Shown here piece by piece: positions 421 through 16,646 of a stretch of DNA of 64,000 nucleotides. A model generated the notes under the pieces. The model saw only the letters and a program-made list of their open reading frames with translations. It had not been told where the DNA came from and ran no database searches. Source of the stretch: an uncultured Alphaproteobacteria bacterium (GTDB lineage Bacteria; Pseudomonadota; Alphaproteobacteria; ATCC43930; CGMCC-115725); NCBI GenBank assembly GCA_963721625.1, contig CAVRKF010000012.1, positions 104,283-168,282 on the forward strand, in the 5' to 3' direction. Positions within the stretch are counted from its first letter, which is position 1. Every line of letters begins with the position of its first letter. A program made the translations under genes and the position numbers.

Positions 421-1298
421 TCCCCATGCCGACGCGCATCGGGACCGCCGAGACGGGCGGCACGTTTTTCACCCAGGGGCTGGCGCTCGCGAGCGTTCTC
501 GACGGCGACACCACGCTCGCCCCGGTCGAGGTGCGGGAAACGCCGGGGGCGAGCGTCGGCAACGCCGAATTGCTCGAAGCGGGCACGATCGAGTTCGGCT
601 TCATGGCCGCCAACTGGGTGGCGCGCGCCATAGGCGGCGCGCCACCCTTCGGCCGCGCGATCCCGCTGCGCACGATCGCGCCGATGAATGTGGGGCCGCT
701 CTTCTTCATCGTCCGCGCCGATTGGGCGCGCGCGACCGTCGCCGATCTCGCTGCACGGCGCGTGATCGTCGGCCCGCGGAAAAGCGGCATGGCCGAGCAT
801 GCCGGGGTCATCCTCGACGCGCTCGGGATTGTCGACGCGGTGCCGGTCCATCTCGATTTCGCCGCCGGCGCCGCGGCGCTCGAGGCGGGCGAGGCCGATG
901 CGCAGCTCCAATGCCCGATTCCGAATCAAGTCATGACCGAACTGTGCCGCCGCACCGCCGTGCGCGTCCTGCCCTATGGTCCGGGACGGCTCGAACAGGT
1001 CCTTGCCGCCGTGCCCTCCTATCGCCGCTGCGTCATGCCGGGAGGGGCGATCCCCGGCCTGGCCGCCGATCTGCCGCAGGTCGGCGTCCTCAATGTTCTC
1101 GTCGCCCATGCGCGGCTGGGCGACGAGGCGGCTGCAGCGATGGCGCGAGGGATCGTCGCAAATGCGGCAGCGCTCGAACGGCTCAACCCATTGTTCCGCG
1201 GCCTCGACCAACTGTGCCGCACGTTCTGCGCCGGCGACACGGAACGACTTCATTCCGGCGCCTTCGGCGCCTATCGCGCGCTCGGACTGGCGCCGTGA
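417..1298 (+). CDS. TAXI/NMT1-like periplasmic-binding-fold protein (TRAP-associated solute-receptor family), with no recognisable signal peptide
   Basis: ORF 417..1298. The N-terminus RIGTAETGGTFFTQGLALA and PGASVGNAELLEAGTIEFGFMAANW resemble the TAXI solute-receptor signature. The GTG at 417 overlaps the SDR stop (GTGA); an alternative ATG lies at 426. Confidence 0.55.
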   Translation: MIPMPTRIGTAETGGTFFTQGLALASVLDGDTTLAPVEVRETPGASVGNAELLEAGTIEFGFMAANWVARAIGGAPPFGRAIPLRTIAPMNVGPLFFIVRADWARATVADLAARRVIVGPRKSGMAEHAGVILDALGIVDAVPVHLDFAAGAAALEAGEADAQLQCPIPNQVMTELCRRTAVRVLPYGPGRLEQVLAAVPSYRRCVMPGGAIPGLAADLPQVGVLNVLVAHARLGDEAAAAMARGIVANAAALERLNPLFRGLDQLCRTFCAGDTERLHSGAFGAYRALGLAP

Positions 1299-2002
1299 CG
1301 AACCCGCGCGGCCGGCGCGCGCGGCGGTGGCGCACCGGCATTGTCGCCGCCCTGCTGCTCGCCGGCGCCGGCTTTCGTCCGGCGATGGCGCAGACCGATG
1401 TCGATCTCGCCCTCGTGCTCGCCGTTGATGCGTCCGGTAGCGTCGACGAAACGCGCTTCGAGCTGCAGAAGCACGGCTATGCCGCCGCCTTTCGCAATCC
1501 GCGCGTGGTCGATGCGATCGCGGCCGGACCGCGGCGCCGCATCGCCGTCGCGATGGTGCAGTGGACGGGGCCGACCCTGCATGCGCTGACGGTCGATTGG
1601 ACGTTCGTGAACGATGCGGCCTCGGCGCGGGCCCTCGCCGACGCCATCGACGCGACGCCGCGCGAGCTTTTCGGCGGCGGCACGTCGCTGAGCGGCGCTA
1701 TCGACTTTTCGGTGGCCTTGCTGGCCCGCTGCCGCTGCCGCAGCCCGCGGCGCACCATCGACATTTCGGGCGACGGCGCGAACAACCGCGGCCGCCCGGC
1801 CGAGCTGGCCCGCAACGAGGCGGTGACGCAGGGCGTGGTGATCAACGGCCTGCCGATCCTTACCCTCGAGCCCGATCTCGACGCCTATTACCGCGCCAAT
1901 GTCATCGGCGGCCCGGGGTCGTTCCTGATCACCGTGCAAAGCGACGACGCGTTCGCGCGGGCGATCCTCGACAAGCTCGTCACCGAGATCGCCCGGCGCT
2001 GA
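1295..2002 (+). CDS. DUF1194 (vWA-like) domain protein, secreted
   Basis: This is the 3' part of ORF 722..2002. The GTG at 1295 overlaps the upstream stop (GTGA). A signal-like segment IVAALLLAGAGFRPAMAQ is followed by DLALVLAVDASGSVD...ISGDGANN...VINGLPI, typical of DUF1194. The 5' part of the ORF overlaps the TAXI gene and is Arg-rich nonsense. Confidence 0.75.
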   Translation: MTNPRGRRARRWRTGIVAALLLAGAGFRPAMAQTDVDLALVLAVDASGSVDETRFELQKHGYAAAFRNPRVVDAIAAGPRRRIAVAMVQWTGPTLHALTVDWTFVNDAASARALADAIDATPRELFGGGTSLSGAIDFSVALLARCRCRSPRRTIDISGDGANNRGRPAELARNEAVTQGVVINGLPILTLEPDLDAYYRANVIGGPGSFLITVQSDDAFARAILDKLVTEIARR

Positions 2003-2020
2003 CGCCGGCGGGACGGCGCG

Positions 2021-2461
2021 TCAGCCGACGGAACGCTTGGTCGCGTAGTCGCGAATTTCCTCGAGGCTCTCGGTCATGCGCCGGCTCAGCACGTTGAAGG
2101 CGTCGGTATTCGCCTTCGTGACCAGATCGGAAATGTCGCGGACGTTGGTCATTCCCTTTTCCATCGCCGATTTGGAAAACTCGGAATGCTTCGCCACCCG
2201 GTCCTCCATCGAACCGTTGGGCTGCAGGAAGCTCGCGAACATGGACGAGAATTCCTCCATCGTGCGGCGTGCCATCTCGAGCTGATAGCGCAGGACAGCC
2301 TGGGCGCCCTCGATGGCGAGCTGGTTGGCTTGCGTCACCGCCTCGATATTCTTGCGCTGCATGGCAACGATCGTTTCGAGATCGGCTGTCGGCGCCCGCA
2401 TCTCGCCGAACATCTTTCCGATGTCCATAAGCCATTCGGACCCGGCACCCGCATTGGCCAT
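2021..2461 (-). CDS. phasin family (PHA granule-associated) protein
   Basis: ORF 2021..2521, with the start trimmed to the ATG at 2461 (MANAGAGSEW...). It is a helical, Ala/Glu/Met-rich protein of about 146 aa, with ...ETIVAMQRKNIEAVTQANQLAIEGAQAVLRYQLEMARR typical of alphaproteobacterial phasins. Confidence 0.8.
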   Translation of the reverse strand: MANAGAGSEWLMDIGKMFGEMRAPTADLETIVAMQRKNIEAVTQANQLAIEGAQAVLRYQLEMARRTMEEFSSMFASFLQPNGSMEDRVAKHSEFSKSAMEKGMTNVRDISDLVTKANTDAFNVLSRRMTESLEEIRDYATKRSVG

Positions 2462-2552
2462 GACGTCCCTCCGACTATGTTGCCAGATTGCCACCATGCG
2501 CCCCGCCTTCCGCCCCGTCAAAAGATTTCTGCCGTCGGCCGCTCAAACCGGT

Positions 2553-4706
2553 TCAGGGCGGCGGCACCTGCAGCGGCGGCAGGGTCGACCGATCGAGCAG
2601 CGCGCGGAACTGCCGCATCACCTTGTCCGTGGCATCGGTCGCGTCCGCGTCATTGCCGAGGACATAGGGCGTCAGAAACAGGATCAGTTCGGTCCGCGTC
2701 GCGTTGTTGTTGCGGTTGCCGAAGAGCGCCCCGATCACCGGGATCTCGTTGAGGAGCGGGATGCCCGCGGAATCGCGGCTGTCCTGGTCCTCGATGAGGC
2801 CGCCGAGCAAGATCGAATGGCCGCTGTCGACGCTGACCGTGCTGGTGAGCCGGCGCTGCTGGAAGGTCGGGGAATTGAGGGTGGACGAGGTGGTCGGGAC
2901 CACGTCGATCACCGACTGGTTGATCTCCATGGTGACGACGCCGCCGGCGCTGACGCGCGGCGTGACCGAGAGCACGATACCCGTTTCCTTGTATTGCACG
3001 TTGCTTAAGACCAGCGGATTCGCGGTCAGCGTGCTCGCGGCGGACTGGGTGATGATCGGCACGACGTCGCCGACTTGGAGGCGCGCCGTCTGGTTGTCGA
3101 GCACCATCAGCCGCGGCGTCGAGATGACCTTGGTCTGGGTCAGTTCCGAAAGCGCTTGCAGCACCACGCGCGGCTGCAGATTGGCGGCGGTGAACGAGAG
3201 CGAGAAGCCGGGCGTGGCCGGGGTGATGGCGGCGGTGCTGGTGCCCGTGGTGAGCAGCGTCGAGATATTGCCGCCGGCGCTGCCGCGCGAATTGAGAAAA
3301 TATTGCACGCCGTATTGCAGGGAATTGTTGAGCGTGACCTCGGCCACGGTGACCTCGATCAGCACCTGCAGCGGCGCCGTGTCGATCCCTTCGAGCACGT
3401 CGCGGATCAGGCCGTAATCGCGCGGCGTCGCCGAGATCAGCAGCGCATTATGGGCGTCGTCGGCGACGATGCGCACGCTCGGCTCGGCACCCGGCTCCGG
3501 CTGCGTCGCGGACGGCCCCGGCGGCGCCACCGGCGCGGGGCTGCCGAGCAGTGGCGGCGGCGTCGGAAACCCGGGTGCCGGCGGCGGGATCGGGTTGACA
3601 TCCGTCCCCGCGCCGCCGATGCCCATCCCCGCGGGATTGGCGGTGGTCGGCCCCTGGACCTCGATATTGATGCCAGACAGCGCGCCCTGCAGCGTTTGCG
3701 CCACTTGCGCCGCCTTGCCGTATTGCAGGTAATAGACGTAAACGCGCCGCTCATTCACGTTGCGGGTGCGATCGAGCCGCGCGACCCAGGCGCGCGCCTC
3801 GTCGAGATAATGCGGCTCGCGCGTCAGCACCATCACCGCATTGAGGCGTTCGACCGGCAGGAAGCGGATCACGTTGAGCGCCGCCTCCTTGCGCGTCGCA
3901 TCGAAAATGTTGTTGAGTTCGACGACGACGGTCGCGGCCTGGGCGTTCTGCAGCGGCAACAGCCCCACCGACAGGCCCCGCATCTGGTCGACATCGAAGA
4001 TCCGCACCGCGTCCTCGGCGAGACCAAGTTCTTCGGACGTGCCCTTCACCATGACGAGGCGCCGCGTTTCGTCGGCGAGAATGACCGCGCCCGGCGGCAG
4101 CAGCTTGTCGAGCACGTCGCGGATATCGGCAACGGTGACGTAGCGAACGGGAAACAGCTCGATTCGCTCCCCGACCGCGCCCGGCTGGGGCGACCCGATC
4201 GGCAGCGCCGCCGGCGGCTGGCCCTTGGTCCGCGCCATCATCACGCGGATGATGCCGTCCTGCTGCACCAGGGTCACGCCGCGGCTCGCGAGGATCGCCT
4301 CGAACGCCGGCAGAACCTCGTCGCGCCGCAGCGGCCGCGCAACCTTGAACGTGACCGGGCCGGCTACGTCGGGATCGATCACGTAATTGAGCTTGAGCGT
4401 CTCGCCCAGCACCGCGGCGATGACGGCGCGGATGTCGGCGCCCGAAAAATTCAGAGTCACGTCGGCCGGCGTCGTGCCGGCGGCAGCGGTTGCGCGCGGC
4501 GCCAGCACCGGCGCCTCGGGGCTCGCGCCGCGCACGATGACCGGTGCTGCCGCTTTGCTTTCGCGGCTCGCCGGCGACGGCAGCACGGCGAGCGGACGGC
4601 TCTCGCTCATGGGAGCGGCCAGCGGCGCAGCGAGCGGCGCGGCCGGCGCCGCGGCACTCGCCGGCGACAGCGGTGCCGGCGTCACACCGCACGCCGTCAG
4701 CATCAT
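2553..4706 (-). CDS. gspD: type II secretion system secretin GspD
   Basis: ORF 2553..5069 is intact. The N0/N1 region reads NFSGADIRAVIAAVLGETLKLNYVIDP...VTFKV, and the secretin core reads ...VISTPRLMVLDNQTARLQVGDVVPI...GIPLLNEIPVIGALFG. The start is uncertain. I use the ATG pair at 4706 (MMLTACG, lipoprotein-like), but a non-ATG start further upstream is possible. Confidence 0.9.
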   Translation of the reverse strand: MMLTACGVTPAPLSPASAAAPAAPLAAPLAAPMSESRPLAVLPSPASRESKAAAPVIVRGASPEAPVLAPRATAAAGTTPADVTLNFSGADIRAVIAAVLGETLKLNYVIDPDVAGPVTFKVARPLRRDEVLPAFEAILASRGVTLVQQDGIIRVMMARTKGQPPAALPIGSPQPGAVGERIELFPVRYVTVADIRDVLDKLLPPGAVILADETRRLVMVKGTSEELGLAEDAVRIFDVDQMRGLSVGLLPLQNAQAATVVVELNNIFDATRKEAALNVIRFLPVERLNAVMVLTREPHYLDEARAWVARLDRTRNVNERRVYVYYLQYGKAAQVAQTLQGALSGINIEVQGPTTANPAGMGIGGAGTDVNPIPPPAPGFPTPPPLLGSPAPVAPPGPSATQPEPGAEPSVRIVADDAHNALLISATPRDYGLIRDVLEGIDTAPLQVLIEVTVAEVTLNNSLQYGVQYFLNSRGSAGGNISTLLTTGTSTAAITPATPGFSLSFTAANLQPRVVLQALSELTQTKVISTPRLMVLDNQTARLQVGDVVPIITQSAASTLTANPLVLSNVQYKETGIVLSVTPRVSAGGVVTMEINQSVIDVVPTTSSTLNSPTFQQRRLTSTVSVDSGHSILLGGLIEDQDSRDSAGIPLLNEIPVIGALFGNRNNNATRTELILFLTPYVLGNDADATDATDKVMRQFRALLDRSTLPPLQVPPP

Positions 4707-4942
4707 TGCGATGAGGACGAAAAGCGCGGTCGGAGCGCGGCGCCGCGATGACGCCCGTCGCGGGAGCGGAAGAAGACAAACGATTGTGAAATCCCCCGCG
4801 CTTGCTGGACACAAGCGATACTTGTCCCTACGATGCACCCGCTGCGGAAAGGATGTCAACGGCGGCAGGAGCGGAAGTTCGCCTCCCTGCGCCGTGCGGC
4901 CACCGCGATGACGAGACGCGCGCCCTGACCGACCACTCGCCA

Positions 4943-6040
4943 ATGCTGGTGCTATATTTCCTCGCGATCCTGTCCGGTGCCGGCCTTGCCTTCGCTTGGC
5001 ATCTCGTGACGCCGCCGGTGCTGGCGCGAGTTGCCGCTCTGGCGCGGCCGCATCGCCACCGCCTGTCATTCGGATGGCTCAAGGCGGCCCTGGTCTCGCG
5101 GCCGGGAATCGCCATTCTGCTGCTCCTGCCCTTCGCCGGTGTCGCGACGGCTTTTTATTGGCGTGGCGGCGCGCTCGATAGCGGCGCGCACAACGCGCTG
5201 CTCGAACGTGCGCGCGAGGAGGCGCCGCACGATCTCAATGCCGCAGTCGCCGAGCTCAAGGCGCGACTGGCCAAGGAGCCCAACGACAGCGACGGCTGGC
5301 GCCTCTTATCGCGCTCTTACACCCTGCTCGGCGAGCCGCAAAAAGCCGCCGAAGCGGCGCAGCGCGCGGCCGCGCTCGGCGCCAAAAGCGGCAATGCGGA
5401 TGCGCAGTCCGCCGCGGGCGAGGATCTCGTGACCGCCAATGGCGACAAAGTCGTGCCCGAGGCCCGGCGCCTGTTCGAGGCGGCGCTCGCCGCCGATCCC
5501 AACGATCCGCGCGCCCGGTTCTATATGGGCCTCGCCGCGGCGCAGGACGGCCATGGCGACGCGGCGCTGCAACGCTGGCTCGCGCTCGAGGCCGATTCGC
5601 CCGCGGATGCACCGTGGCTCGGCGGTCTGCGCACGAATATCGACCGGCTGGCCAAGCAGATGGGCGTCGGCGCCGCCGACCTCGCCCAGCGCCGCGCCGC
5701 GCTCGCCAAGGCGGAACCGTCGTCGCCGGCCGCAGCACCCGCGCCGGCCGCCGAAGCGGTTCCGGGTCCGAGCGCCGGCGATGTCGCCGCGGCGGCGCAG
5801 ATGTCGCCCGACGACCGCGCGGCGATGATCAAGGCGATGGTGCAGCGCCTTGCCGACCGGCTCGCGCACGAACCGGGCGACGTCGACGGCTGGATGCGCC
5901 TGGGGCGCGCCTACGCGGTGCTCGGCGAACCGCAGAAATCGCTCGACGCCTATCGTCATGCGGCCGAGGCCGATCCCAAGCGCGCGGATGCGCGCGCTGC
6001 TTATGCCAACGCGCGCAATGCCGCCGGCGCGACTCCGTGA
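4943..6040 (+). CDS. ccmI: cytochrome c-type biogenesis protein CcmI/CycH (TPR)
   Basis: ORF 4802..6040, with the start set at the ATG at 4943 (MLVLYFLAILSGAGLAFAW, a TM segment). A second TM follows, then TPR-like repeats (GWRLLSRSYTLLGEPQKAAEA...; GWMRLGRAYAVLGEPQKSLDAY), which is the CycH architecture. Confidence 0.8.
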   Translation: MLVLYFLAILSGAGLAFAWHLVTPPVLARVAALARPHRHRLSFGWLKAALVSRPGIAILLLLPFAGVATAFYWRGGALDSGAHNALLERAREEAPHDLNAAVAELKARLAKEPNDSDGWRLLSRSYTLLGEPQKAAEAAQRAAALGAKSGNADAQSAAGEDLVTANGDKVVPEARRLFEAALAADPNDPRARFYMGLAAAQDGHGDAALQRWLALEADSPADAPWLGGLRTNIDRLAKQMGVGAADLAQRRAALAKAEPSSPAAAPAPAAEAVPGPSAGDVAAAAQMSPDDRAAMIKAMVQRLADRLAHEPGDVDGWMRLGRAYAVLGEPQKSLDAYRHAAEADPKRADARAAYANARNAAGATP

Positions 6041-6053
6041 GGGAGCAACCACC

Positions 6054-6508
6054 ATGAGCCGCCCTATTGCCCGCGCGATTGCCGTTTCCGCCGCGCTTGC
6101 CGTCGCCGCTGGCGCCACCGCCACGCCCGGGCGCAGGAGACGGCGCCGCCCACTGCCAGCCGGCTCGCCGGCAATACTTTGAGCGGGGTCCTCTATCTTC
6201 CCCGCGAAGGGGCCAAGGGCGAGACGCTCGACCGCGTCGTGTTCCAAGCCTTCCTGCGCGCCGACGGCACGGCGCTGATACGGCGCTGGGTGCCCGCGCA
6301 GGACCGTTACGCGCCGCCCGCCGAGCGGCACTGGAGCCTCTCGGGCAGCACGCTGTGCCTCGATTTCCCGTCCGACGAGAACGTGCCCCACCTGTGCATC
6401 GAGGCGCATGTTTGGGGCCCACGCATCGCCGGCAACACCACGCAGGGACAGTTTGCCATGCTCGACGGCAGCATCGAGCCCGGCAACACGATCGTCGCCG
6501 CGCGTTGA
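6054..6508 (+). pseudogene. small secreted hypothetical protein, reading frame broken once
   Basis: The signal peptide MSRPIARAIAVSAALAVAAGATA (ATG at 6054) is in the frame of ORF 5850..6182. The body (ORF 6179..6508 and its upstream extension RAQETAPPTASRLAGNTL) is in another frame. The junction lies in cgcccgggcg at about 6124..6133. Confidence 0.5.
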
Positions 6509-6600
6509 CAGCTTCAAGTCACGCCGGACTTTCCTTTGGCGCGGAACCCGCCTAAGGTTGGGCTTGGGAGTGCGCGCGCGTTCGAGCCAAGGAGGGCGAT

Positions 6601-7342
6601 TTGAAGGTCGAAGATGTGGTGCGCCAGGCATTCGCCATGCCGCTGACGAGCCCTTCGTTCCCGCCGGGCCCGTATCGCTTCGTCAACCGCGAATACCTCA
6701 TCATCACCTACCGCACCGATCCCAAGGCGCTCGATGCCGTCGTGCCCGAGCCGCTCAAGATCGCGGCGCCGCACGTCAAATACGAATTCATCCGCATGCC
6801 GGATTCATCGGGCTTCGGCGACTACACCGAGTTCGGGACAAGTGATCCCGGTCACCTACGAGGGCAAGTCCGGCGGCTACGTCCATTCGATGTTTCTCGA
6901 CGACGAGGCGCCGATCGCCGCCGGCCGCGAGATCTGGGGCTTTCCCAAGAAGCTCGCCAATGTCTCGTTCAAGGTCGAGACCGACACGCTGCTCGGCACG
7001 CTCGATTACGGCCGCATCCGCATCGCCACCGGCACGATGGGCTACAAGTACAAGGCACTCGACACCGCCGCCATCGCCAAGGCGATGGTCGAGCCGAGTT
7101 TTCTGCTGAAGATCGTGCCCCATGTCGATTGCACGCCGCGCATCTGCGAGCTGGTGCGGTATTATCTCGAAGACGTGACCGTCAAGGGCGCGTGGACCGG
7201 ACCTGCCGGGCTCGAGCTCGCGCGCCACGCGTTGGCGCCGCTCGCGGAGCTGCCGGTGCTGGAAGTGGTCTCGGCCGTGCATTTCCTCGCCGATCTCACC
7301 CTGGGCCTCGGCGAAGTCGTGCACGACTACATGAAGGAATAG
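6601..7342 (+). pseudogene. adc: acetoacetate decarboxylase, one frame break
   Basis: ORF 6601..7425 gives [44 protein letters not shown]... up to about 6835. ORF 6734..7342 continues with [38 protein letters not shown]...HDYMKE. The start is a TTG at 6601 preceded by aaggaggg. The junction is in gttcgggacaagtg (6831..6844). Confidence 0.85.
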
Positions 7343-7357
7343 CGCGCGGGTTGCGCG

Positions 7358-9313
7358 TCACTTGTCGTGCATCACCATTTCGACGCCGATATTGCTCTCG
7401 CGCAGCCGCTCGAGGTGAAGGGTGACGCATTTGTCGCCGGGATTCTCCCGATGCAGTTCCTCGAATAGATCGACCGCCCTGGGATCGCGCTGCTCCGCCA
7501 GCGCGTAGGCCTCGAGATAGCGCTTGATGTAGGGCGAAGCGGCGCGTTCCTCCTCGAGCGGCTCATAGATGCCCAGCGGCTCCTCCCGGCCCTTGGGCAC
7601 GACGACCGCGATCGGACGGAACGGGATGCCGGTGACGCTCGCGCAGGTCGATTCGCTGATGCAGATACGCGTGCCAAAATATTTGTTGATGCCTTCGAGC
7701 CGCGAGGCGGTATTCACGGTATCGCCGATTGCGGTGTATTGCATGCGGGTGTGCGAGCCGAAATTGCCGACCACGGCGTGGCCGGAATGGACGCCGATGC
7801 GCGTCATGCCAAGCGGAATTCCCTTGGCGCGCTGCTCGGCGCGGAAGGCTTCCGAGAATCGGTCGATCGCGAGCGCGCACGTCACGGCGCGAGTGGCGTG
7901 ATCGGACTGGTCGGCGGGCGCGTTGAAGATGGCGAACACGGCGTCGCCGATGAACTTGTCCACGGTTCCGTTGAGGCCGAGAATGACGGCGCAGACGCCG
8001 TCGAGATAGGCGTTGAGCATCTCCGCCACGTCGCGGGCCTCCATCTTCTCCGACAGCGAGGTGAAGCCTTCGATATCGGTGAAGAGAAAGGTCATCGCGC
8101 GGCCCTCGCCCTCGAGCCTCAGGCGCTTGGGGTCCTTCACCAGCTGGGCGACCACCACGGGCGACAGGTAGCGTGCGAAGGCCGTCTGGATGAAGGCGCG
8201 CTGACGGCGCTCCTGGCGCCCGGTGAGGAGATCGGTCGCCCATTGCGACATCGCGCTGGCGATGGTGGGGCTGATGAGGACGATGGACAAGCCGGTGAAG
8301 CGGAACAGCGCGAAGCCCGAGACCCACAGCAGCGTCGGCGCCAGCACCGAGAGCCCGACCCGCGGCCCGAGCGCGAGCTTGGCCGCGCCGGTCGCCGCGC
8401 CGATGCAAGCCATCACCAGGACGAGCGCCACTTCGGCACCGAGGCCCGGATCGCGGGACGGCGCACGATGGAGCAGCTGCGACACCGCGTTGGCATGGAT
8501 TTCGATGCCCGGCAGGCTGCCCTCGTTGCCGCCATAGACCGAGGCGAAGGGCGTGCGATGGCGATCGGTGAGGCTCACGATCTCGCCGATCAGGACGATC
8601 TTGTCCTTGAACCACGCCGCCGGAAGGATCGGCACGAGCTCGGCGGGGAAGATGCGGAACGGCGCGGTGGCGGCATCGGGCCGGCCGTGCCAGACCATCT
8701 CGCGCTGAACCGGCGGCGTGGCGACGCCGGCCATCTGCAACAGACCGCGGGCGAAACCAGCCAACTCGCTGCCGTCGCGCTCCTTGACGTCCGGCAGGAT
8801 CCAGCGCGCGGTGCCGAAGGCGTCCGACGCGATCTCGGCGGCGACGCGGCGGCCGGGCGGCACGAACGCATCGAGATAGGCGAGCTGCTTGGCATCGACG
8901 ATCTCGGGATTGCTGGTATAGCTCACCGCGAGCGGAACCTTGAGATCGGCGATCGTCTGCTTGAGCGCCGCGTCCTTCGCCTGCTCCGTCGGCTGGTCGA
9001 ACAGGATGTCCATGCCGATCGCGCGCGGCTGGCGCGCGGCCAGCGTCTGCAGGAGATTGCTGAGAAACTCGCGATCGACCGGCGAGCGGTAGGGAAATTT
9101 TTGAAGCGTGCTCTCTTCGACGGCCGCGATGACGATGTCGGGGTCCTGGGGCTCCGGCGGCAGCAGGGTGGCGATACGCAGATCGCCGACGAAGCGCTCG
9201 GCCTGGGTGAGAAACGCGATGTTGTGCACCATCACGACCGCCGCCAGCGTGGACAGCAGCGCCACCGTGATCTGGACCAGCACCTCCTTCGACAGGAATT
9301 GGGGCCGTCTCAT
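7358..9313 (-). CDS. CHASE2 sensor domain-containing class III adenylate/guanylate cyclase
   Basis: Intact 651-aa ORF. It has an N-terminal TM and a periplasmic CHASE2-like region ([18 protein letters not shown]...[11 protein letters not shown]...DKIVLIGE...[14 protein letters not shown]). Three TM segments follow, then the cyclase core ([43 protein letters not shown]). Confidence 0.9.
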
Positions 9314-9338
9314 CGCGATCCGCCGGCGCGCCGGAAGC

Positions 9339-10052
9339 CTATTTCTTGCTGAGCATGGCGAGGAGCGCGTTCGCCTGGTTGTCGCAGCCGACCTGGCTCA
9401 TCCAGCTCGCGCGCATGACGTCGTTGCCGACCGCCGCGGGGATGATGCGAACTGTCACCGGCGCCATCTTGCCGCCGACATTGATGATATAGCTGGTCTG
9501 ATCGCGCAGCGGCAGCGTCGCGGGCATCGACAGCTCGGCAGCGCCGGCCGGCCACCGCCCCGACACCGCCCAGCTTTGGTCGGCGGGCGCAATCGAGACC
9601 GCGGTGTCGCTGAAATCCCCGCTGCGCCACAGCACCACCGGTACGCCGAGCTGCACGCAGCTCGTCCCCGGATGCGTGACGTCGACGACCCAGGGGTTCG
9701 GCAGAATCACGTCCTTTTCGCCGCGCACCACGCCAACCTCGCTGGTGCGGGCCTTGCGCTCGGTGAGCAACGCCGCAACCGCGGTCGCGACATCGGTCGT
9801 GCCGCCGCCCGCGCGACTATCGGGTACCGCGTTCGACGGGCCTTCGAGCGTGATGAGCTGTCCGCTCGAGGACATCAGCGTGACCTCTTGACCGTCATGC
9901 AGCGAGAATGGCTTGGATCCGTCAATCTGCTGCCCCGGCGTAAGGCGAATCCCGTGCGAATTGACGACCACCAGTTGCGCGGCAGCGGCGGTCTCGGCCG
10001 CCAGCGCCGACAACCCAAGCGACAATCCCGCGAGCACGATCCAACACTTCAT
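9339..10052 (-). CDS. secreted hypothetical protein (possibly FecR- or DUF928-like accessory component)
   Basis: This is the C-terminal 237 aa of ORF 9339..10784, starting at the ATG at 10052 (MKCWIVLAGLSLGLSALAAETAAAAQ, a clear signal peptide). The ATG overlaps the stop of the CHAT gene by 4 nt (ATGA). Confidence 0.7.
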   Translation of the reverse strand: MKCWIVLAGLSLGLSALAAETAAAAQLVVVNSHGIRLTPGQQIDGSKPFSLHDGQEVTLMSSSGQLITLEGPSNAVPDSRAGGGTTDVATAVAALLTERKARTSEVGVVRGEKDVILPNPWVVDVTHPGTSCVQLGVPVVLWRSGDFSDTAVSIAPADQSWAVSGRWPAGAAELSMPATLPLRDQTSYIINVGGKMAPVTVRIIPAAVGNDVMRASWMSQVGCDNQANALLAMLSKK

Positions 10053-13000
10053 CGACGATTCTCCGAGGACGATGGATTCCGGCTGCCCGCGGCCGTGGCG
10101 ATGGATGCGCCGTCCGGCATGTCGGCGCTCGCGTGCGCGGCGCTCTGGCCACCGTCGCCGATCAGGGTGAAGGCGGCCCAGAAGAACGGATGCGCCGTCT
10201 GGGGATGGGCAATGAGGGCAAGCTGCGACTGGCGCAGCGCTTCGGCGATGCCGCCGGAAAGGTTCGGCCCCAGCCGCTGGAACAGCCCCGTCATCAGCTG
10301 CACCGTTTGCGCCGACGGCACTTCCCAATGGCTGGCAAGCACCGCGCGCGCGCCGGCATGGAAGAACGCGCCGGCCAGGCCCGACAGCGATGCGCCGCCG
10401 AACTCGCCGCCGCCCGTCGCGGTGTTGCAGGCCGAGAGCACGACCAGGTCGGCGTTGAGGTGCAGCTGGGCGACCTCGCTCGCATCGAGCACGCCATCGG
10501 CGGCGCGTGTGGTCGCGGGCTCGAGCGGCGGCGTCAGCACCAGCGCCGGTTCGGACTGACAGCGCAGCGCCGTCGGCAACAGGCCATGGGTCGCGAAATA
10601 GAGCACGCGGTATTGCGCCAGAGGCATCGCGCGGAAATGCGGCTCGGTCGCCTGTGCGCCGAGCAGGATGGAGCCGCTGTCGGCGTTGAGAATGGCGGCG
10701 ACGCGTCGCACCTCGTCGACCGTGTCGGGAAGCGGCGGCAGCGCGCGCAAGAGTTGCGGCGGCACCGGTCCCGAGTCGCGGCACGCGTTGTCGAGCCGAT
10801 CAAGACCGGACGTGGCGCCGGCGCGTGCCGACCCGCCGAAGTCGGGATCGCCGACCGCCAGCAGCGGCCGCGAGGCCGCCGCCGTGGCACCGGCCTCGCG
10901 CAATGTGGCGAAGCCGCGCGCCGACGGCACCTCGCTGATCGCGGTACGCCGCAGCAGCCACTGCACGCTGGAATAGTCATGCGCCGCGCCCGCCTTGGGC
11001 CGTTCCGTCACCAGCAACCCCAGCGGCAAACTCGCCAGCGCCCCGGTCGGAACCACGATGAGGTGATCGACGCCCGTGAGCCCGCTTTCGATCGCGCCGA
11101 AGAGCGAGCGGTAAAGACTATAGGCCGCCTCGGTATCGAAAACGCCGATCGCCCGTTGGCGCACGACGAAAGCCTTGCGCACCTGGCTGATATCGTCGGC
11201 CAGCGTTTCGCGGTCGGTGTCCATCGGCCGCGCGATCAGGCGATCCTTGCGCACCAGGAGTTCGAAGCTGCGCTCGCGGCCGGCTTCAAACAGGACCAGA
11301 GCCTCGTCGGCCCGCAGCCCCTTCTGCAACTCGGCGAGCGGAACCGGACCGGGATTGGCGAATTTCGCGTAGGCCGGGAATTCGCTGGTGATGCGCTTTT
11401 CCAGCGCGTCGGCCTTGGCGGTCGCGGCATTGATTTGGGCCATGAGCACGTTCTCGTGCTCGCTGCCGCGCCGGTCGTTGGGGAGCGAGACCTCATGGGC
11501 GAGCGCGAGCCGTGCCGCGTCCCGCTGCTGTCGCGTCGCCTCCAGCTCGTCGACGAGGCTGGCGATCGCCGGCGCGGCGGAGGCGAGCCGCGCCGCAACG
11601 CGGTTCACGGTATCGTCGACGAGGCTCTTGCCGATGAGCTGGGCCGCCTCGAACACCTCGCCATCGAGCTGCGCGCGCTGGCTCGGGTCGGCCTGCGCGA
11701 CCGCGTTCGCGGCGACGATGAACGGCGCGATCTGATCGACGATGACCGCCGAGCGCGCGACCTCGTCGTTCCTCAGGATCGCGAGCGCGAGGCGGAACGC
11801 ACGCACTGCCGCGTCGTAGCGCTTCTCCTCGGTGAAGATGCGACCGATGACGAGATCGGTGACGGCCGTGGGAGCCGTGTTGCCGAACAAGCGCTCGTCG
11901 AGGACGAGGGCGGCGCGGAAGCTTGCATCGACGGCGTCCTCGCGGCCCTGCGCGGAGCGGATCTCGGCGACCGTCGTCAGGACTTCGGGGCGCCACCACG
12001 GCGGCAGGCCGGGATCCTGGGCCACGATCCCCTCGGCCTCGGAGATCGCCGCGTCGGCGGCGGCGAGGTTGCCGGTGCGCAGCGCCATCTCCGCCTCGAG
12101 ATCGAGGGCGAAGGCGAGTTCGCCGAGCGTCGCCGTACGCGCCGCCCCCGTGACAATTTCGGCGGCCACGCCCTCGCCCTGATTGGCAAGATTGCGCCAG
12201 GCCGCGGCGGCATTGTCGGCGAATTCGAGCGCTTCGTCGAAACGGCCGCGATTCGCCGCATCGAAGGCGAGGTAGAGCTGAAGCCGGGCGCGATCGGAGG
12301 CGCTGCCGGCAGTGGTGATGATGGGTTCGGCGCGGCGGAATAGTGCCGCGGCCTCGTCGAAGCGTTCCTGATTGCTGATTTGAAGCCCGAGCTCCGCGAG
12401 CAGCAGCCCGACGCTGGCCGACCGGTCGCCGAAGACCTTGGTGAGAATGGCCAGCGCCCGGCGGTAGTCGTCCTCGGCGGCGCCAAAGTTCTTGTGGCTC
12501 GACTCGACGCGCGCCGTCTCGGTCAGCGTGGTATAGCTGTCGTAATCCCCGCCCGACGGACGCAGCCAGCGCTCGCCGCCGAGCCGCACCATCCGCGCGC
12601 GTGTCGCCGCGACCGGGCCGAACGGCGCGAGGGCGTCGGTGCCGGTGCGGCCCAGCAAGCGCGCTATCGCCTGCTCATACGCCGGCAAGCCCGAGGCCAG
12701 GCCTTCGGCACGAAACAACAGCGGCCCCGCTACGACCACCGCGAGCACCTGCGGCCATTCATTGTCGCTGAAGACGCAAGGCTGCAACATGAGGTCGATG
12801 CCGCCGGGCGTCTTGGCCCACTGCCCGGCCCTGCAGGTGAGGCGCGTGGCATCGCCGCGGCCGGCGGGCGTGTCGGCTGCCAGGCGCTCAAGCGCCTGAT
12901 GCCGCGCCGTTGCATTATCCGGCAGGCCGGACGGCACGGGCGTCGCCACGACCGAGCCGGTCGGCCGCTTCGCCGTGCCGCAGAAGATATTCGCCGGCAA

Positions 13001-13183
13001 TGGCGCGTCGCGTTCGCGCGGGAGATCGGTTCTTATCTCCCAACGGCATTTGTCGCCGTTGAAATCCGTGCCGATGACCGCGGTATTGGCGGCTGCTGAC
13101 CCGGTCTGCGCGGCCGCGCCTCCCGTTGCAGCCAGGATGACGCCGAGCGCGGCCGCTGCCGCCGGAATGCGCCATGCCCTCAT
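10049..13183 (-). CDS. secreted TPR-repeat / CHAT domain (caspase-fold peptidase family) protein
   Basis: Intact 1044-aa ORF. The signal peptide is MRAWRIPAAAAALGVILAATGGAAAQ, and the central region is a TPR-like helical repeat. The C-terminal CHAT core carries a His/Cys dyad in the motifs VLYFATHG (His codon 10586..10588) and LVVLSACNTATG (Cys codon 10427..10429). Confidence 0.88.
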   Translation of the reverse strand: MRAWRIPAAAAALGVILAATGGAAAQTGSAAANTAVIGTDFNGDKCRWEIRTDLPRERDAPLPANIFCGTAKRPTGSVVATPVPSGLPDNATARHQALERLAADTPAGRGDATRLTCRAGQWAKTPGGIDLMLQPCVFSDNEWPQVLAVVVAGPLLFRAEGLASGLPAYEQAIARLLGRTGTDALAPFGPVAATRARMVRLGGERWLRPSGGDYDSYTTLTETARVESSHKNFGAAEDDYRRALAILTKVFGDRSASVGLLLAELGLQISNQERFDEAAALFRRAEPIITTAGSASDRARLQLYLAFDAANRGRFDEALEFADNAAAAWRNLANQGEGVAAEIVTGAARTATLGELAFALDLEAEMALRTGNLAAADAAISEAEGIVAQDPGLPPWWRPEVLTTVAEIRSAQGREDAVDASFRAALVLDERLFGNTAPTAVTDLVIGRIFTEEKRYDAAVRAFRLALAILRNDEVARSAVIVDQIAPFIVAANAVAQADPSQRAQLDGEVFEAAQLIGKSLVDDTVNRVAARLASAAPAIASLVDELEATRQQRDAARLALAHEVSLPNDRRGSEHENVLMAQINAATAKADALEKRITSEFPAYAKFANPGPVPLAELQKGLRADEALVLFEAGRERSFELLVRKDRLIARPMDTDRETLADDISQVRKAFVVRQRAIGVFDTEAAYSLYRSLFGAIESGLTGVDHLIVVPTGALASLPLGLLVTERPKAGAAHDYSSVQWLLRRTAISEVPSARGFATLREAGATAAASRPLLAVGDPDFGGSARAGATSGLDRLDNACRDSGPVPPQLLRALPPLPDTVDEVRRVAAILNADSGSILLGAQATEPHFRAMPLAQYRVLYFATHGLLPTALRCQSEPALVLTPPLEPATTRAADGVLDASEVAQLHLNADLVVLSACNTATGGGEFGGASLSGLAGAFFHAGARAVLASHWEVPSAQTVQLMTGLFQRLGPNLSGGIAEALRQSQLALIAHPQTAHPFFWAAFTLIGDGGQSAAHASADMPDGASIATAAGSRNPSSSENRR

Positions 13184-13277
13184 GCGTGCATCTCCGCCCC
13201 TTGCCGCGCGTGCGCTGCCCTTCGCGGCGCCGCGCGCAGATTACCACGACCCGCGGCCATGGTCGCAACTCTGCCTG

Positions 13278-15068
13278 TCAATAGGTTACCGCCACGTTGA
13301 AGAGGATCCGCGAGTCGGTCTTTCCGGAGCTGGTCGAGCCGCCATTATTTGGCACGCCCTTCAACTGCTGCGCGAATTCTATACCACCGGTCACCCTTTG
13401 CAGCAAAGACACGCGCACGCCGAAGCCGACCGAGGCCAGCGATTGCCGATTGGGGATGGTCAGCGCGATCACCGGCCCGTCATTATTGTTCCAGGTCCGG
13501 GCGACGTCGAGAAAACTATAGAATTGCGCCGTGTCGATCGATTGATACGGATGGCGCAGGGTATAGCGCAGCTCGCTGGCAAGACCGACGCCGCTGTCGG
13601 CGGCCAGCGCCGCCGGATCGTAACCCCGCCCGATCCCCGATCCGCCGAAGCTCGTCTGCTCGCCGATGAGCAACTTGTCGAAGCCGTATTGCGCGAGCGC
13701 GTGGAAGTTGGCACTGATCGGGCCGACAATCGGCTGGTCGTGCTGCAGCACGACGGTCACCTTGTTGAAATCGGTCGGCTTGCCCGGCCCCCCGGTGCAC
13801 GGCGATGTGCTTTCGGCGCCGAAGAAGGGCAGGCCCTGCATCAGATCGACGGTGACGCCGGTCGTCGAGGCGCCGATGAGACCGCTATTCTGCACCGTCA
13901 CCGCGCCATCGACGGTACGCCAGTGATCGTCGCTGAAGTCGCAGGCGGCAGCGCCGCCGAGGTCAAGGCGGATCTTGGCGGCTTGGATCGTGAGGCCGCC
14001 GTCGACCGTAACCCGCAGCGGCCGGGTCACGATGAGAGGGTAGGCGAGGCGCGAGCCGAGCGCATAGCTGTCGCTGAGGAGGACGCTGCCGCCGGCAATG
14101 CCCGAAGGCGCGCCGTGGGCGTCGACGCCGGACAGGCTCCAAATCGCGCCCTCGTCGCCGACCGGCTTGGTGTAGTGCGCCTGGAAGAGATTGCGCTCCT
14201 GGAAGTGCGGCGTCGCCGAAGCATCGAAGGTGAACTGGCCACCGACCCAGGGCAGCGAATTCACCGCCGCCTGCGCACCCAGCGTCACCACGCCGGTCGA
14301 AGCCGCGCCGCGGTTGTCGGCATAGGCGGTTACCTGCCACGGAACCTGATCGAGCGTGACCTGCATATCCGAGGCGCCGGGTTCGGTCGGCGACGGCCGC
14401 AGCAGCCCCGAGGCGCGCGTGCCCGGCAGGTCGTTCGCCAGCAGGAGCCCGCGCTCCAAACTGTCAAGCGACGCCGGACGTTCTTTCGTCACGCCGCCGA
14501 CATAGGCATCGACCTTCGCGCGGGTGCGGGCGTCGCTGCCGGTGACCGAGACCGCTTTGACGTAGCCCTCGACGACGTCGATCGTGAATACGCCGCTGCT
14601 CACCGTCTGCGGCGGCACATAGGCGCGCGTCAACACGTAACCCTTCGCGCGGTACATCGCCTCGATCTTGTCGGCGACCGCGGTGATGTCGGACAGCTTG
14701 GCCATCTTGCCGACCAGCGGCGCGATCAGCGGACGAAACGCCGCGGCCGGAAACGCGGTGGCGCCGACGACCTTGATGTCGGTGACCGCGAACTGGATCT
14801 GATCGACGGCGCGCGGAACCGGTCCGCTGCGCGGCGAGGGAATGCTGAATTCGAACGGCGCCGGCGGCGGCGGCGGCGACGGGGCCGGTATATTGCGTCC
14901 CGGCTCGGGCTGGCCCGGGAACGGCGTCGGCGACGTCTGCGCCGTGGCAGCGGCGACGCCGCCGACGGCGGCGAGCGCGAGAGCCGCGCATCCGGCCAAG
15001 CGGCGCGGCCGCCGCGGTGCCGCAACGTGACGACCGGCACCTACGGCGCCCATCAATTGTCTCCGCAC
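13278..15068 (-). CDS. ShlB/FhaC/HecB-family outer-membrane transporter (POTRA + 16-strand-type beta-barrel)
   Basis: Intact 596-aa ORF. It has a signal-like N-terminus and a Pro-rich linker (PSPPPPPAPFEF). The POTRA region reads IKVVGATAFPAAAFRPLIAPLVGK...IEAMYRAKGYVLTRAYVPPQ...FTIDVVEGYV, and the barrel ends ...ILFNVAVTY (terminal aromatic residue). Confidence 0.85.
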   Translation of the reverse strand: MRRQLMGAVGAGRHVAAPRRPRRLAGCAALALAAVGGVAAATAQTSPTPFPGQPEPGRNIPAPSPPPPPAPFEFSIPSPRSGPVPRAVDQIQFAVTDIKVVGATAFPAAAFRPLIAPLVGKMAKLSDITAVADKIEAMYRAKGYVLTRAYVPPQTVSSGVFTIDVVEGYVKAVSVTGSDARTRAKVDAYVGGVTKERPASLDSLERGLLLANDLPGTRASGLLRPSPTEPGASDMQVTLDQVPWQVTAYADNRGAASTGVVTLGAQAAVNSLPWVGGQFTFDASATPHFQERNLFQAHYTKPVGDEGAIWSLSGVDAHGAPSGIAGGSVLLSDSYALGSRLAYPLIVTRPLRVTVDGGLTIQAAKIRLDLGGAAACDFSDDHWRTVDGAVTVQNSGLIGASTTGVTVDLMQGLPFFGAESTSPCTGGPGKPTDFNKVTVVLQHDQPIVGPISANFHALAQYGFDKLLIGEQTSFGGSGIGRGYDPAALAADSGVGLASELRYTLRHPYQSIDTAQFYSFLDVARTWNNNDGPVIALTIPNRQSLASVGFGVRVSLLQRVTGGIEFAQQLKGVPNNGGSTSSGKTDSRILFNVAVTY

Positions 15069-15281
15069 TGGGTCTGAACCAACCCGCCCCCCGAGGCAAC
15101 GTACCCAACCGCGCGCCGGCGATTATTCGTGCGGCCGTAAAGCGCAACCGCAGCAAATGAACCATAGCCGAACGCAAGGCGCGAGAAAAGCGCTGCGGCG
15201 GTGTCCGCTCATCCGCGGTTGCATCTTCGCGCACGGCCGTTTAGCTTTGCGCCTCGGCATGGCGCTTTGGTGCGGGGGGCA

Positions 15282-16646
15282 ATGAAGCGAATCCTGGTGC
15301 GCGGCATGGCCGGCGTGGCGATGTGCTGGCTCGTGATCGCGCCGCCGCCGCCAGCCGCCGCGCAGGCTGCGGCGCCGGCGCGACCGACCGACTCGGTTCA
15401 TCTCGGTGTCGCATCCTGCGCCGGCAGCACCTGTCACGGCGCTGTCGAGCGGCTCAAAGGCTCGTCGGTCGCGCAGAACGAATACATCATCTGGTCGCGC
15501 AAGGACAAACACGCCAAGGCCTATGCCGTGCTCGGCGAGCCGCGCTCGCAGCGCATCGCCCGCAATCTCGGTCTCGGCGACGCGCGCACCGCCCCGATCT
15601 GCCTCGATTGCCACGCCGACAACGTACCGCCCGACATGCGCGGCCCGCAGTTCCAGATTTCGGACGGAGTCGGATGCGAGGCCTGTCACGGCGGCGCCAA
15701 GAGCTGGCTCGGCGTGCACATCTCGGGGGCAACCCACCGCGAGGACGTCGCCGCGGGCATGTATCCGACCGACGACCCGAAAGCGCGGGCAGAGAAATGC
15801 CTGTCCTGCCATTTCGGCGACGACCAGCGCTTCATGACGCATCGTATCATGGGCGCCGGACATCCCCGGCTCAGCTTCGAGCTCGACACCTTCACCGCCG
15901 CCGAACCCGCGCATTTCGTCGTCGACAAGGTCTATATCCAGCGCAAAGGCCCGGTGAACGACGTCCGGGTCTGGGCGGTGGGACAGGCGGTCAGCCTGGT
16001 GAAGCATATGGATGCGCTGCTCGATCCCAAGCGCGCGCCCAAGGGGCTGTTCCCGGATCTCGTGCTGTTCGACTGCACGGCCTGCCACCATTCGATGAAT
16101 AACTTGCGCTGGCAGCCCGATCCCGCAACCGGGCTGCCGCCCGGCACGCCGACGCTTGAGGATGCGAACGCGGTCATGCTGCGCATCATCGCTGCCCGTG
16201 TCGCCCCGGCCGCAGCCGAGACCATCGCCGACCACATGCTCGCGCTGCATCGCGCCACCACGGCGAACTGGGCCGCCGTGCGTGCGCGAGGCGCGCGCGG
16301 TGCGCGATGCGGCAAACCAGCTCATCCCGGTGCTCGAGAGCCACGACTTCACCCGCCAGGACACGCGCGCGCTGGGCGACGCTCTTATCGCCGCCGGGCT
16401 CGAGCACCACGCCGGTAGCTATCCCGATGCCGAGCAGGCGACGATGGCGCTCTCATCGATCGTCAGCGAGATGAAGCTCTCCGGTTCCGTCAACGATCAG
16501 CGCAGGCCAAGGCGATGTACGGGTCGCTCAACGGCCTCTATGACGCGCTCGCGAACAACGACAGCTACCGGCCGGAAGCGTTCGTGACGGCGCTGCAGCA
16601 ATTCCGCAAGGTGATGGACCAGGCTCAGCCGAAGAGCGGGCCGTAA
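15282..16646 (+). pseudogene. periplasmic multiheme cytochrome c (one CX4CH plus four CXXCH motifs), two frame breaks
   Basis: ORF 15201..16418 from the ATG at 15282 gives MKRILVRGMAGVAMCWLVIAPPPPAAAQ (signal) and the motifs CAGSTCH, CLDCH, CEACH, CLSCH, CTACH. Sense continues in the frame of ORF 16156..16587 (REARAVRDAANQLIPVLESHDF...) from about 16280. It then returns to the original frame from about 16500 (AQAKAMYGSLNGLYDAL...KVMDQAQPKSGP, stop at 16644..16646). Confidence 0.75.

Follow-up and report, generated by a model that had tools for sequence, protein, structure and literature searches.

The stretch of DNA analysed here (64,000 nt, about 68% G+C, hereafter the window) comes from an uncultured soil alphaproteobacterium, and its proteins are identical or near-identical to those of metagenome-assembled genomes (MAGs) of Stellaceae (Alphaproteobacteria). 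Between positions 7358 and 15068 it carries four co-directional minus-strand genes, which encode, in the direction of reading, a TpsB outer-membrane transporter of the two-partner secretion (TPS) type, an exported TPR-CHAT protein with a caspase fold, a small exported protein of an unnamed family, and a receptor with a CHASE2 sensor domain and a probable adenylate cyclase output. The four genes are most likely a real, intact operon, the TpsA-less variant of an envelope module that is widespread but uncharacterised and has a core formed by CHAT and the small protein, usually together with the CHASE2 cyclase and TpsB. As to function, we tentatively propose a relay across the envelope, with the protease and the small protein acting jointly as the periplasmic input device of the CHASE2 cyclase; we regard this as a serious candidate that falls just short of being probable.

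Operon layout and conserved gene neighbourhoods

The open reading frames (ORFs) encode 596 aa (TpsB, 13278-15068), 1044 aa (CHAT protein, 10049-13183), 237 aa (small protein, 9339-10052, counted from an ATG overlapping the stop codon of CHAT) and 651 aa (cyclase, 7358-9313), and their spacings are 94 nt, -4 nt (an ATGA overlap) and 25 nt. A previous reading of the same DNA, made from the letters alone (the sequence-only reading), had placed four co-directional genes here with these spacings, and its positions proved exact when the ORFs were checked. Its domain calls (POTRA/ShlB, CHAT with TPR, and CHASE2 with Guanylate_cyc) were borne out by Pfam, and a search of the operon proteins against NCBIfam gave nothing beyond the Pfam matches. 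It had also directed all four products to the envelope, which agrees with the hydrophobic segment read at the N-terminus of each; in the first three proteins this region looks like a cleavable signal peptide, with a basic n-region ahead of the hydrophobic core and then a site of the Ala-X-Ala type. As that reading had further noted, the 7.7 kb of the operon are free of frame breaks while the flanks are broken, the flanking genes being frameshifted in comparison with a relative that is 88% identical (locus L001). The ratio of nonsynonymous to synonymous substitution rates (dN/dS) against L001 is lowest for the cyclase (0.13) and lies at 0.22 for CHAT, at 0.23 for the small protein and at 0.26 for TpsB, and all four genes are under purifying selection. 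The spacer of 94 nt between TpsB and CHAT (13184-13277, minus strand) contains a GGAG sequence, read as the ribosome-binding site ahead of the CHAT ATG, and a scan found no terminator-like site within it. A weak, G+C-rich terminator-like hairpin (7343-7357, minus strand) lies directly 3' of the cyclase stop codon; terminator-like sites are no commoner than in shuffled sequence, and this hairpin at the end of the operon is suggestive only. Both promoter and terminator scans were at background level.

Related loci were collected in two ways. The scan anchored on the small protein, with one genome per species, returned 23 loci, and the CHAT-anchored scan of metagenomes returned 80 loci, which were scored with hidden Markov models (HMMs) built locally from the collected sequences. 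The loci were picked by similarity and are not phylogenetically independent, and many of the metagenome contigs are truncated. The gene order of the window recurs in full in L001-L006, six loci in which identity varies between the proteins from 58% to 91%. CHAT stands immediately upstream of the small gene in 18 of the 23 genome loci and in 20 of 29 metagenome loci. Where the CHAT protein has the Cys-rich N-terminal domain described below (n = 34), the small protein is found in 20 of 29 evaluable loci and CHASE2 in 14 of 24; for CHAT proteins without that domain (n = 16, N-terminus evaluable) the corresponding figures are 2/14 and 2/9, next to no association. The loci that have the N-terminal domain and lack a partner gene belong to the most distant orthologues (27-31% identity), and TpsB is present in every long-flank metagenome locus that also has the small gene. 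Conserved synteny, which the sequence-only reading had left to be looked for, is therefore found: the families are conserved together across many lineages and from 40% to 70% G+C. Membership is kept while the order shuffles between lineages, the orders seen being TpsB-TpsA-CHAT-small-cyclase, TpsA-TpsB-CHAT-small-cyclase, CHAT-small-cyclase-TpsB and, in Sphingobium, CHAT-cyclase-small-TpsB-giant. Because the gene set recurs in dozens of loci, the arrangement is far beyond chance.

Culturable carriers of the module exist, among them Niveispirillum cyanobacteriorum TH16 and Sphingobium sp. TomMM7A. In the cultured Niveispirillum cyanobacteriorum TH16, a 1-Mb plasmid encodes TpsB, TpsA, CHAT, the small protein and the CHASE2 cyclase, and the TpsA is a protein of 2937 aa with a TPS domain (3e-23) and nine MBG_2 repeats. 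On plasmids of Sphingobium spp., CHAT is accompanied by a CHASE2 cyclase and the small protein, and further by TpsB, a protein of 2207 aa and a multihaem cytochrome. Other giant neighbours are a 1899-aa protein with a TPS domain (9e-34) beside CHAT in L015, the TpsA of L036 (Pfam TPS, 2e-36), and MBG_2-repeat proteins in which no TPS domain can be recognised.

The small protein is the element common to caspase-fold proteases and CHASE2 receptors. At L110 the neighbours of a distant family member are a TPR protein, a protein that combines DUF4347 with Peptidase_C14, a CHASE2 cyclase and a cyclic-nucleotide (cNMP)-binding protein. Azospirillum ramasamyi (L026) encodes a fusion of the small family with DUF4384, then a CHASE2 cyclase, then a Peptidase_C14-Big_9-SH3-FGE-sulfatase protein. 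The CHASE2 gene follows the small gene by 13 nt at L112, a CHASE2 hybrid histidine kinase adjoins it at L114, and at L113 a kinase with CHASE, not CHASE2, is encoded near a small-family gene. Fusions join the two partners in one chain: P0331 (1816 aa, from a metagenome of the Joint Genome Institute, JGI) has the architecture Pkinase-CHASE2-TPR-CHAT, and a metacaspase-CHASE2 fusion from Trichodesmium has been published (PMC2853523).

Some further features of these loci may be recorded here. The L026 region (plasmid NZ_CP029832, 342112-360723) also encodes a sigma factor of the extracytoplasmic function (ECF) type with a zf-HC2 anti-sigma protein, DUF4399 proteins, a PG_binding-DUF4384 protein, an OmpA-family protein, all ahead of the small-family fusion, and, past the caspase gene, a Crp/Fnr regulator. 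In Tagaea MAGs (L018, L020 and L021), an exported protein of about 245 aa without Pfam match and a cNMP-binding protein of about 170 aa are encoded at about 5600-6900, between divergent TpsB and CHAT, and these two genes are lineage-specific additions to the module. Finally, a 3.5-kb contig binned into a 'Patescibacteria group' MAG (L014, DATGZW010000516.1) encodes CHAT, the small protein and the CHASE2 cyclase with 43-71% identity to the window; its placement is probably a binning error, since the module is otherwise proteobacterial and requires an outer membrane.

The four proteins

Judged by its sequence, the CHAT protein is a predicted peptidase with an intact catalytic dyad. Pfam assigns CHAT (3e-58) and TPR_12 to it, and the CHAT match (PF12770, 197.8 bits) is full length, covering model positions 3-289 of 289. 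The AlphaFold2 (AF2) model (predicted local distance difference test, pLDDT, 82.6; predicted template-modelling score, pTM, 0.80) consists of a disordered signal peptide (predicted at aa 1-25), a Cys-rich N-terminal alpha/beta domain of about 140 residues (aa ~35-180, nt 12647-13081), a long helical/TPR scaffold (nt 11174-12580) and a C-terminal alpha/beta part with the dyad, which Pfam delimits as the CHAT domain (nt 10142-11143), all on the minus strand. His866 (codon 10586-10588, minus strand) lies in ...YFATHG (VLYFATHG) at the end of strand 858-864, and Cys919 (codon 10427-10429, minus strand) lies in LVVLSACNT and follows strand 913-917; both are invariant across 26 aligned homologues with identities as low as 25%. 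The best PDB matches of the model in Foldseek are DdvA, the type III-E TPR-CHAT protein Csx29 and separase (E<=1e-9). DdvA is also the sole PDB match of the CHAT-domain profile, with LVVLSAC(919) aligned to LVVLAAC(907); phmmer with the full-length protein found only TPR proteins in the PDB, and the domain profile was needed to reach DdvA. The dyad of DdvA is H862/C907, and its domain is periplasmic (PMC11506125). The sequence-only reading, which had reported an intact His/Cys dyad at these positions and had named a failure to align with CHAT or caspase catalytic residues as the point that would tell against it, was thus right in this respect, Cys919 falling on the catalytic Cys907 of DdvA. 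Among the 26 homologues Cys68, Cys117, Cys136, Cys801 and Cys875 are invariant and Cys46 is nearly so; these cysteines appear to be of the paired kind expected in an oxidising compartment.

The small protein (9339-10052, minus strand) has a predicted signal peptide and two beta-sandwiches and matches nothing in Pfam or NCBIfam. Its AF2 model (pLDDT 82) shows a beta-sandwich, a helix, a flexible low-confidence linker, a second beta-sandwich and two C-terminal helices, and Foldseek searches of the PDB returned only generic sandwiches of the Ig, FN3 or cupredoxin-like kind (TM score <=0.31). The sequence-only reading had mentioned DUF928-type small secreted proteins as companions of CHAT and CHASE2, a label that does not fit this protein: PF06051 matched neither the window protein nor 20 homologues, even at E<=10. 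FecR (PF04773) was likewise rejected, with no match in 21 members at E<=10 and an hhalign probability of 0.3% against the FecR region of NsrA, and weak matches of the family to VMAP-C (0.058) and Inhibitor_I66 were isolated and were discarded. The protein belongs to a large family without a name, which comprises 1423 cluster representatives at E<=1e-3 in an HMMER scan of 1.84 billion representatives. Seven positions are invariant among 42 members down to 27% identity, and Gly107 and Arg110 are among them. The resulting G107-x-x-R110 motif (9723-9734, minus strand) is a candidate cleavage or recognition site for a clan-CD protease; it sits just ahead of a hypervariable, indel-rich stretch that coincides with the segment of pLDDT<50 (residues 107-112 themselves have pLDDT below 50), and it is kept in all distant members of the family examined. 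Cys132 is invariant and Cys223 nearly so in the same 42 members. Together with the predicted signal peptides, the conserved cysteines of the CHAT protein and the small protein speak for a periplasmic location of both. The MAGs of L002-L006 contain a second copy of the gene (L007-L011), whose product is 53-60% identical and keeps GxxR.

TpsB (13278-15068, minus strand, start at GTG 15068 or ATG 15053) has Pfam matches to POTRA_2 (6e-21, 74.4 bits against a cut-off of 24) and ShlB (1e-17, 65.1 bits against a cut-off of 22.7). Its signal peptide, as read from the sequence, ends in ...LAGCAALALAAVGGVAAATA/QT with cleavage after ...AAATA, and a hydrophobic segment spans aa 24-42. The barrel domain is of the 16-strand ShlB type and carries an L6-type IGRGY motif (GIGRGYDP), which we take to be the L6 (V/I)RG(Y/F) motif of Omp85 proteins. 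Orthologues adjoin CHAT in L001-6, L018, L020-22, L025 and many metagenome loci.

A transporter of this type raises the question of its cargo. The sequence-only reading had seen no TPS domain in the CHAT protein or nearby, and we confirm this: neither PF05860 (E<=0.01) nor a local TPS HMM matches the CHAT protein, no TpsA homologue was found in the whole 64-kb window, and none lies within 5 kb upstream of TpsB in L001-L006. The local TPS HMM was built from two sequences (the local cytochrome HMM is likewise weak), and the counts of TpsA are lower bounds. Canonical TpsA is encoded in the related loci L015, L021, L024, L036, L038, L047, L049, L054, L058, L076 and L098; in relatives outside the immediate clade, the neighbouring protein is such a TpsA with a TPS domain (Pfam, 1e-23 to 1e-36) or else a giant MBG_2-repeat protein. 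The suggestion of the sequence-only reading that the ShlB-type protein might export the CHAT protease itself fares poorly against this, as outside the immediate clade a TpsA adjoins the transporter and CHAT; the same finding, named in that reading as one that would count against it, holds outside the clade but not in the six closest relatives. The CHAT N-terminal domain is identical in kind with or without TpsA at the locus, and for this reason it is not a replacement secretion signal. In the clade of the window, the partner of TpsB may be a TpsA whose gene lies elsewhere; otherwise TpsB would act inside the module itself.

The cyclase (7358-9313, minus strand) matches CHASE2 (Pfam, 1e-30) and Guanylate_cyc (9e-19). 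Its CHASE2 region (nt 8189-9313, minus strand; PF05226, 107.5 bits, aa 23-306) is preceded by one transmembrane (TM) segment (aa 11-29) and followed by a cluster of three (about 295-352), and because these segments flank it, CHASE2 is predicted to be periplasmic and the class III cyclase domain (nt 7517-8131, minus strand) cytoplasmic. The protein aligns end to end with CyaK of Sinorhizobium meliloti (31% identity, E 1e-52). Common to both are the motifs FxDxxGFT, DK(F/Y)IGD, R..IG....G..VVGN.GS and Y(T/S)A(I/L)GD.VN.ASRLEG, which presumably contain the class III cyclase residues, namely both metal-binding Asp, a purine-type pair of Lys and Thr, and the Asn and Arg of the transition state. From these residues, the product is likely to be cyclic AMP (cAMP) rather than cyclic GMP (cGMP). 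The sequence-only reading had suggested that protease activity is read by CHASE2 and converted into cAMP or cGMP; the link between protease and CHASE2 is supported by gene context, whereas cGMP is disfavoured, as the residues point to cAMP. In at least 10 loci the module contains or adjoins genes for cNMP-binding proteins, a Crp-type regulator among them.

A proposed relay, its precedents and its rivals

Precedents for parts of this arrangement exist. The CHASE2 cyclases of S. meliloti perceive a protein signal only through NsrA, which is encoded just upstream of cyaK (PMC7529298, PMC13001267). The NsrA-CyaK system (also CyaD1/CyaD2, with Clr as the cAMP reader) is like the operon in the layout of the cyclase (TM, CHASE2, three TM, class III), in an output of cAMP with a Crp-type reader, as many module loci carry cNMP-binding or Crp genes, and in that an upstream-encoded, TPR-bearing envelope protein reaching the outer membrane is needed there for signal perception. 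It differs in that NsrA is one protein of FecR, TPR and beta-barrel, with no similarity to TpsB or the small protein, and that no CHAT protease takes part; its signal is a host ribosomal protein. NsrA was rejected as a ShlB homologue on domain content and comparison and is an analogue only, and no member of the small family is found beside cyaK. The 'large TPR protein' SMb20495 of S. meliloti was considered as a CHAT homologue and was dropped, since tblastn against all plasmids gave no Sinorhizobium among the main organisms listed and hence nothing comparable on pSymB, although 66 Sinorhizobium records matched the cyclase. The 'BiofilmReg' operon of Burkholderia likewise has a CHASE2 receptor gene beside a gene for an exported accessory protein, but there the accessory protein is LysM-FecR, the output is a histidine kinase, and protease and TPS genes are lacking. 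By analogy, the Burkholderia operon fits the idea that CHASE2 receptors generally work with periplasmic partner proteins.

For the protease, DdvA, already met as the best structural match, is a periplasmic TPR-CHAT protein proposed to transduce, by proteolysis, a signal from outside the cytoplasm into a response within it (PMC11506125). Unlike the window protein, it is anchored in the membrane and carries its output in the same chain, as a zinc anti-sigma domain whose partner is an ECF sigma factor; the TPR-CHAT protein of the window is a separate, soluble exported protein whose output would be the CHASE2 adenylate cyclase. Three active-site helices are absent from DdvA. Craspase (Csx29/Csx30) and separase/securin share the TPR-CHAT fold and the combination of a large protease with a smaller substrate or inhibitor partner. 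They are, however, cytoplasmic or nuclear and gated by RNA or by the cell cycle, and the small protein has no detectable similarity to Csx30 or securin. Separase cleaves after Arg, a specificity that may have its parallel in Arg110, which is invariant in the small protein's linker. With type Vb systems (FhaB/FhaC, ShlA/ShlB) the operon has a bona fide TpsB in common, and most related loci pair it with a giant TpsA (TPS, MBG_2/YDG repeats); in contrast to them, neither the window nor any of its six closest relatives encodes a TpsA next to TpsB, and the TPS pair of the other loci is embedded among a protease, an accessory protein and a cyclase.

In the relay that we propose, the outer membrane would house TpsB, the periplasm TPR-CHAT together with the small protein, and the inner membrane the CHASE2 cyclase. 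An event at the outer membrane or the cell surface, at TpsB (and TpsA where it is encoded), would activate the CHAT protease; this in turn would cleave or release the small protein, for which GxxR in the flexible linker is a candidate site; the state of CHASE2 and with it the rate of cytoplasmic cAMP synthesis would be altered, and cAMP would be read out by cNMP-binding or Crp proteins. The scheme supposes that the proteins interact, that the signal runs inwards, that the small protein is cut and that in the TpsA-less clade TpsB takes part in signalling or serves as an anchor, all of which we infer. A link between protease and CHASE2 is favoured because of the synteny, the replacement of CHAT by C14 caspases and the fusions of CHASE2 with caspase-fold domains. 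A broader version, which we consider rather doubtful, is that CHASE2 receptors are generally switched by regulated periplasmic proteolysis: a TPS-gated caspase-fold protease (CHAT or Peptidase_C14) would cut the small protein at GxxR, the fragment would be the CHASE2 ligand, and a surface event would thereby be turned into cAMP.

Several observations weigh against the relay. CHAT-small pairs occur without a nearby CHASE2 in L012, L013, L015-17, L023 and L031, and some distant CHAT orthologues have neither of the two partners, small protein or CHASE2. The window lacks TpsA, the component presumed to act at the surface, and with it a defined input. The topology of P0331 may put its CHAT domain in the cytoplasm, and the periplasmic rather than surface location of the window CHAT protein is inferred from its sequence. 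The second copy of the small gene in L007-L011 stands alone amid genes for a Rieske oxygenase, a molybdopterin oxidoreductase and thiamine pyrophosphate (TPP) enzymes, in host genomes that also have the module; since GxxR is kept in these lone paralogues among metabolic genes, it may be structural and not a cleavage site.

The main rival, unlikely in our judgement but a real contender, treats the module as an accessory of two-partner secretion: CHAT would be a maturation or release protease of TpsA, the small protein its inhibitor or chaperone, the cyclase a regulator of secretion-system expression, and the window a remnant after loss of TpsA. FhaB is known to be processed by dedicated proteases, namely SphB1, CtpA and DegP, a TpsA or a giant MBG_2/GLUG repeat protein adjoins CHAT in most relatives outside the clade of the window, and TpsB is found in every long-flank module locus. 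A remnant sits poorly, however, with seven genomes (the window and L001-L006) that keep all four genes intact, at dN/dS of 0.13-0.26, with no adjacent TpsA. Moreover, the set of small protein, CHASE2 cyclase and caspase exists without any TPS genes (L026, L110), and the small family is paired with CHASE2 receptors without any protease (L112, L114). It is improbable, in turn, that TpsB of the window clade exports CHAT or the small protein to the surface or the medium. The position of TpsB directly upstream of CHAT across a 94-nt gap, the lack of a TpsA in 64 kb and the purifying selection on TpsB would suit such a cargo; but known TpsB transporters recognise a TPS domain, which CHAT lacks by Pfam and by the local HMM, and its N-terminal domain is modelled as about 140 aa of alpha/beta structure rather than as a beta-helix and is equally there beside a real TpsA.

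A role in defence or programmed death, with a Pycsar-like cyclase or a DdvA-like phage sensor and a caspase-like effector or trigger, is very improbable. It is suggested by the PycC models of PADLOC, which match the cyclase domain (best 7e-30), by the CHAT proteases of type III-E CRISPR and by DdvA, which controls an island of CRISPR and the cyclic-oligonucleotide-based antiphage signalling system (CBASS). We rejected the PycC assignment all the same: the matches reflect the common class III fold, the cyclase is a full-length CyaK homologue with the Lys/Thr purine-type pair, and it has no Pycsar effector next to it, as the closest ORF for a cNMP-binding protein is 29 kb off. PADLOC found no other family beyond a marginal BovA match, export takes both the protease and the small protein away from phage nucleic acids, and the module is linked to TPS adhesin-type genes and not to defence islands. 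That four envelope genes happen to be adjacent without forming a functional unit is scarcely credible. Promoter and terminator signals at background level would allow it, but the genes overlap by 4 nt or are spaced by 25 nt, and the synteny data, in which the families recur together in shuffled order, at 40-70% G+C and in many lineages, already contradict this reading.

To our knowledge, CHASE2 is a common bacterial sensor domain without a known ligand, and its signals have been obscure since the domain was defined. In the only case that has been studied, CyaK/NsrA of S. meliloti, the partners seem to be proteins rather than small molecules. The module adds a second and far more widespread set of CHASE2 partners, built on the small-protein family, which has more than 1400 representative clusters and is repeatedly joined to caspase-fold proteases, and there is a real chance that it may reveal a general activation mechanism for CHASE2 receptors. 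Each component family was already known, and envelope partners of CHASE2 cyclases have precedent. Our literature search found no paper combining CHASE2 with a CHAT domain, a CHAT domain with two-partner secretion, or, among the papers listed, CHASE2 with TPS, and no functional study of this gene combination was found in the searchable literature. If the relay holds, a caspase-like protease would act as a periplasmic signalling enzyme, a role so far proposed only for DdvA, and two-partner secretion, usually viewed as a route of adhesin or toxin export, would be tied to second-messenger signalling.

Neighbouring genes and flanks

Divergent from TpsB, a gene for a tetrahaem (4 x CxxCH) cytochrome c554-like protein occupies 15168-16643 on the plus strand, with its 3' part frame-broken in the window; it was identified by the Pfam match of the L001 orthologue to Cytochrome_C554. 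Two distant clades, represented by the window, L001-6, L025, L099 and L103-105, have this cytochrome gene beside the module, which hints at a redox-linked sixth component. In Sphingobium-type loci it is placed downstream of the small gene.

The flanks (1-7357 and 15069-40000) contain isolated 1-nt insertions relative to L001, which lie outside homopolymers (e.g. at 6831, 16280, 17828, 17980, 18452/18466 and 18795). Among the frameshifted genes are those for acetoacetate decarboxylase, a short-chain dehydrogenase/reductase (SDR) and a patatin-like protein, together with the 3' end of the cytochrome gene. The coverage by ORFs of consistent G+C content at third codon positions (GC3) is 54% in the window against 83-92% in relatives, falling to 12-35% at 16-40 kb and reaching 91% in the operon bin. 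At a uniform rate of about 0.7 breaks per kb, the probability of finding none in 7.7 kb would be about 0.4%. The frameshifts of the flanks may stem from assembly error, pseudogenisation or another cause. In the same frame-broken region, at 38451-38717 on the minus strand and about 29 kb from the cyclase, lies an ORF fragment for a cNMP-binding protein (Pfam, 8e-18).

Just past the cyclase end of the operon, an intact GspD-type secretin of 838 aa is encoded at 2553-5069 on the minus strand, and its L001 orthologue has Secretin, Secretin_N and N0 domains. Also past that end, a CcmH-like TPR protein is encoded on the plus strand at about 4387-5980.

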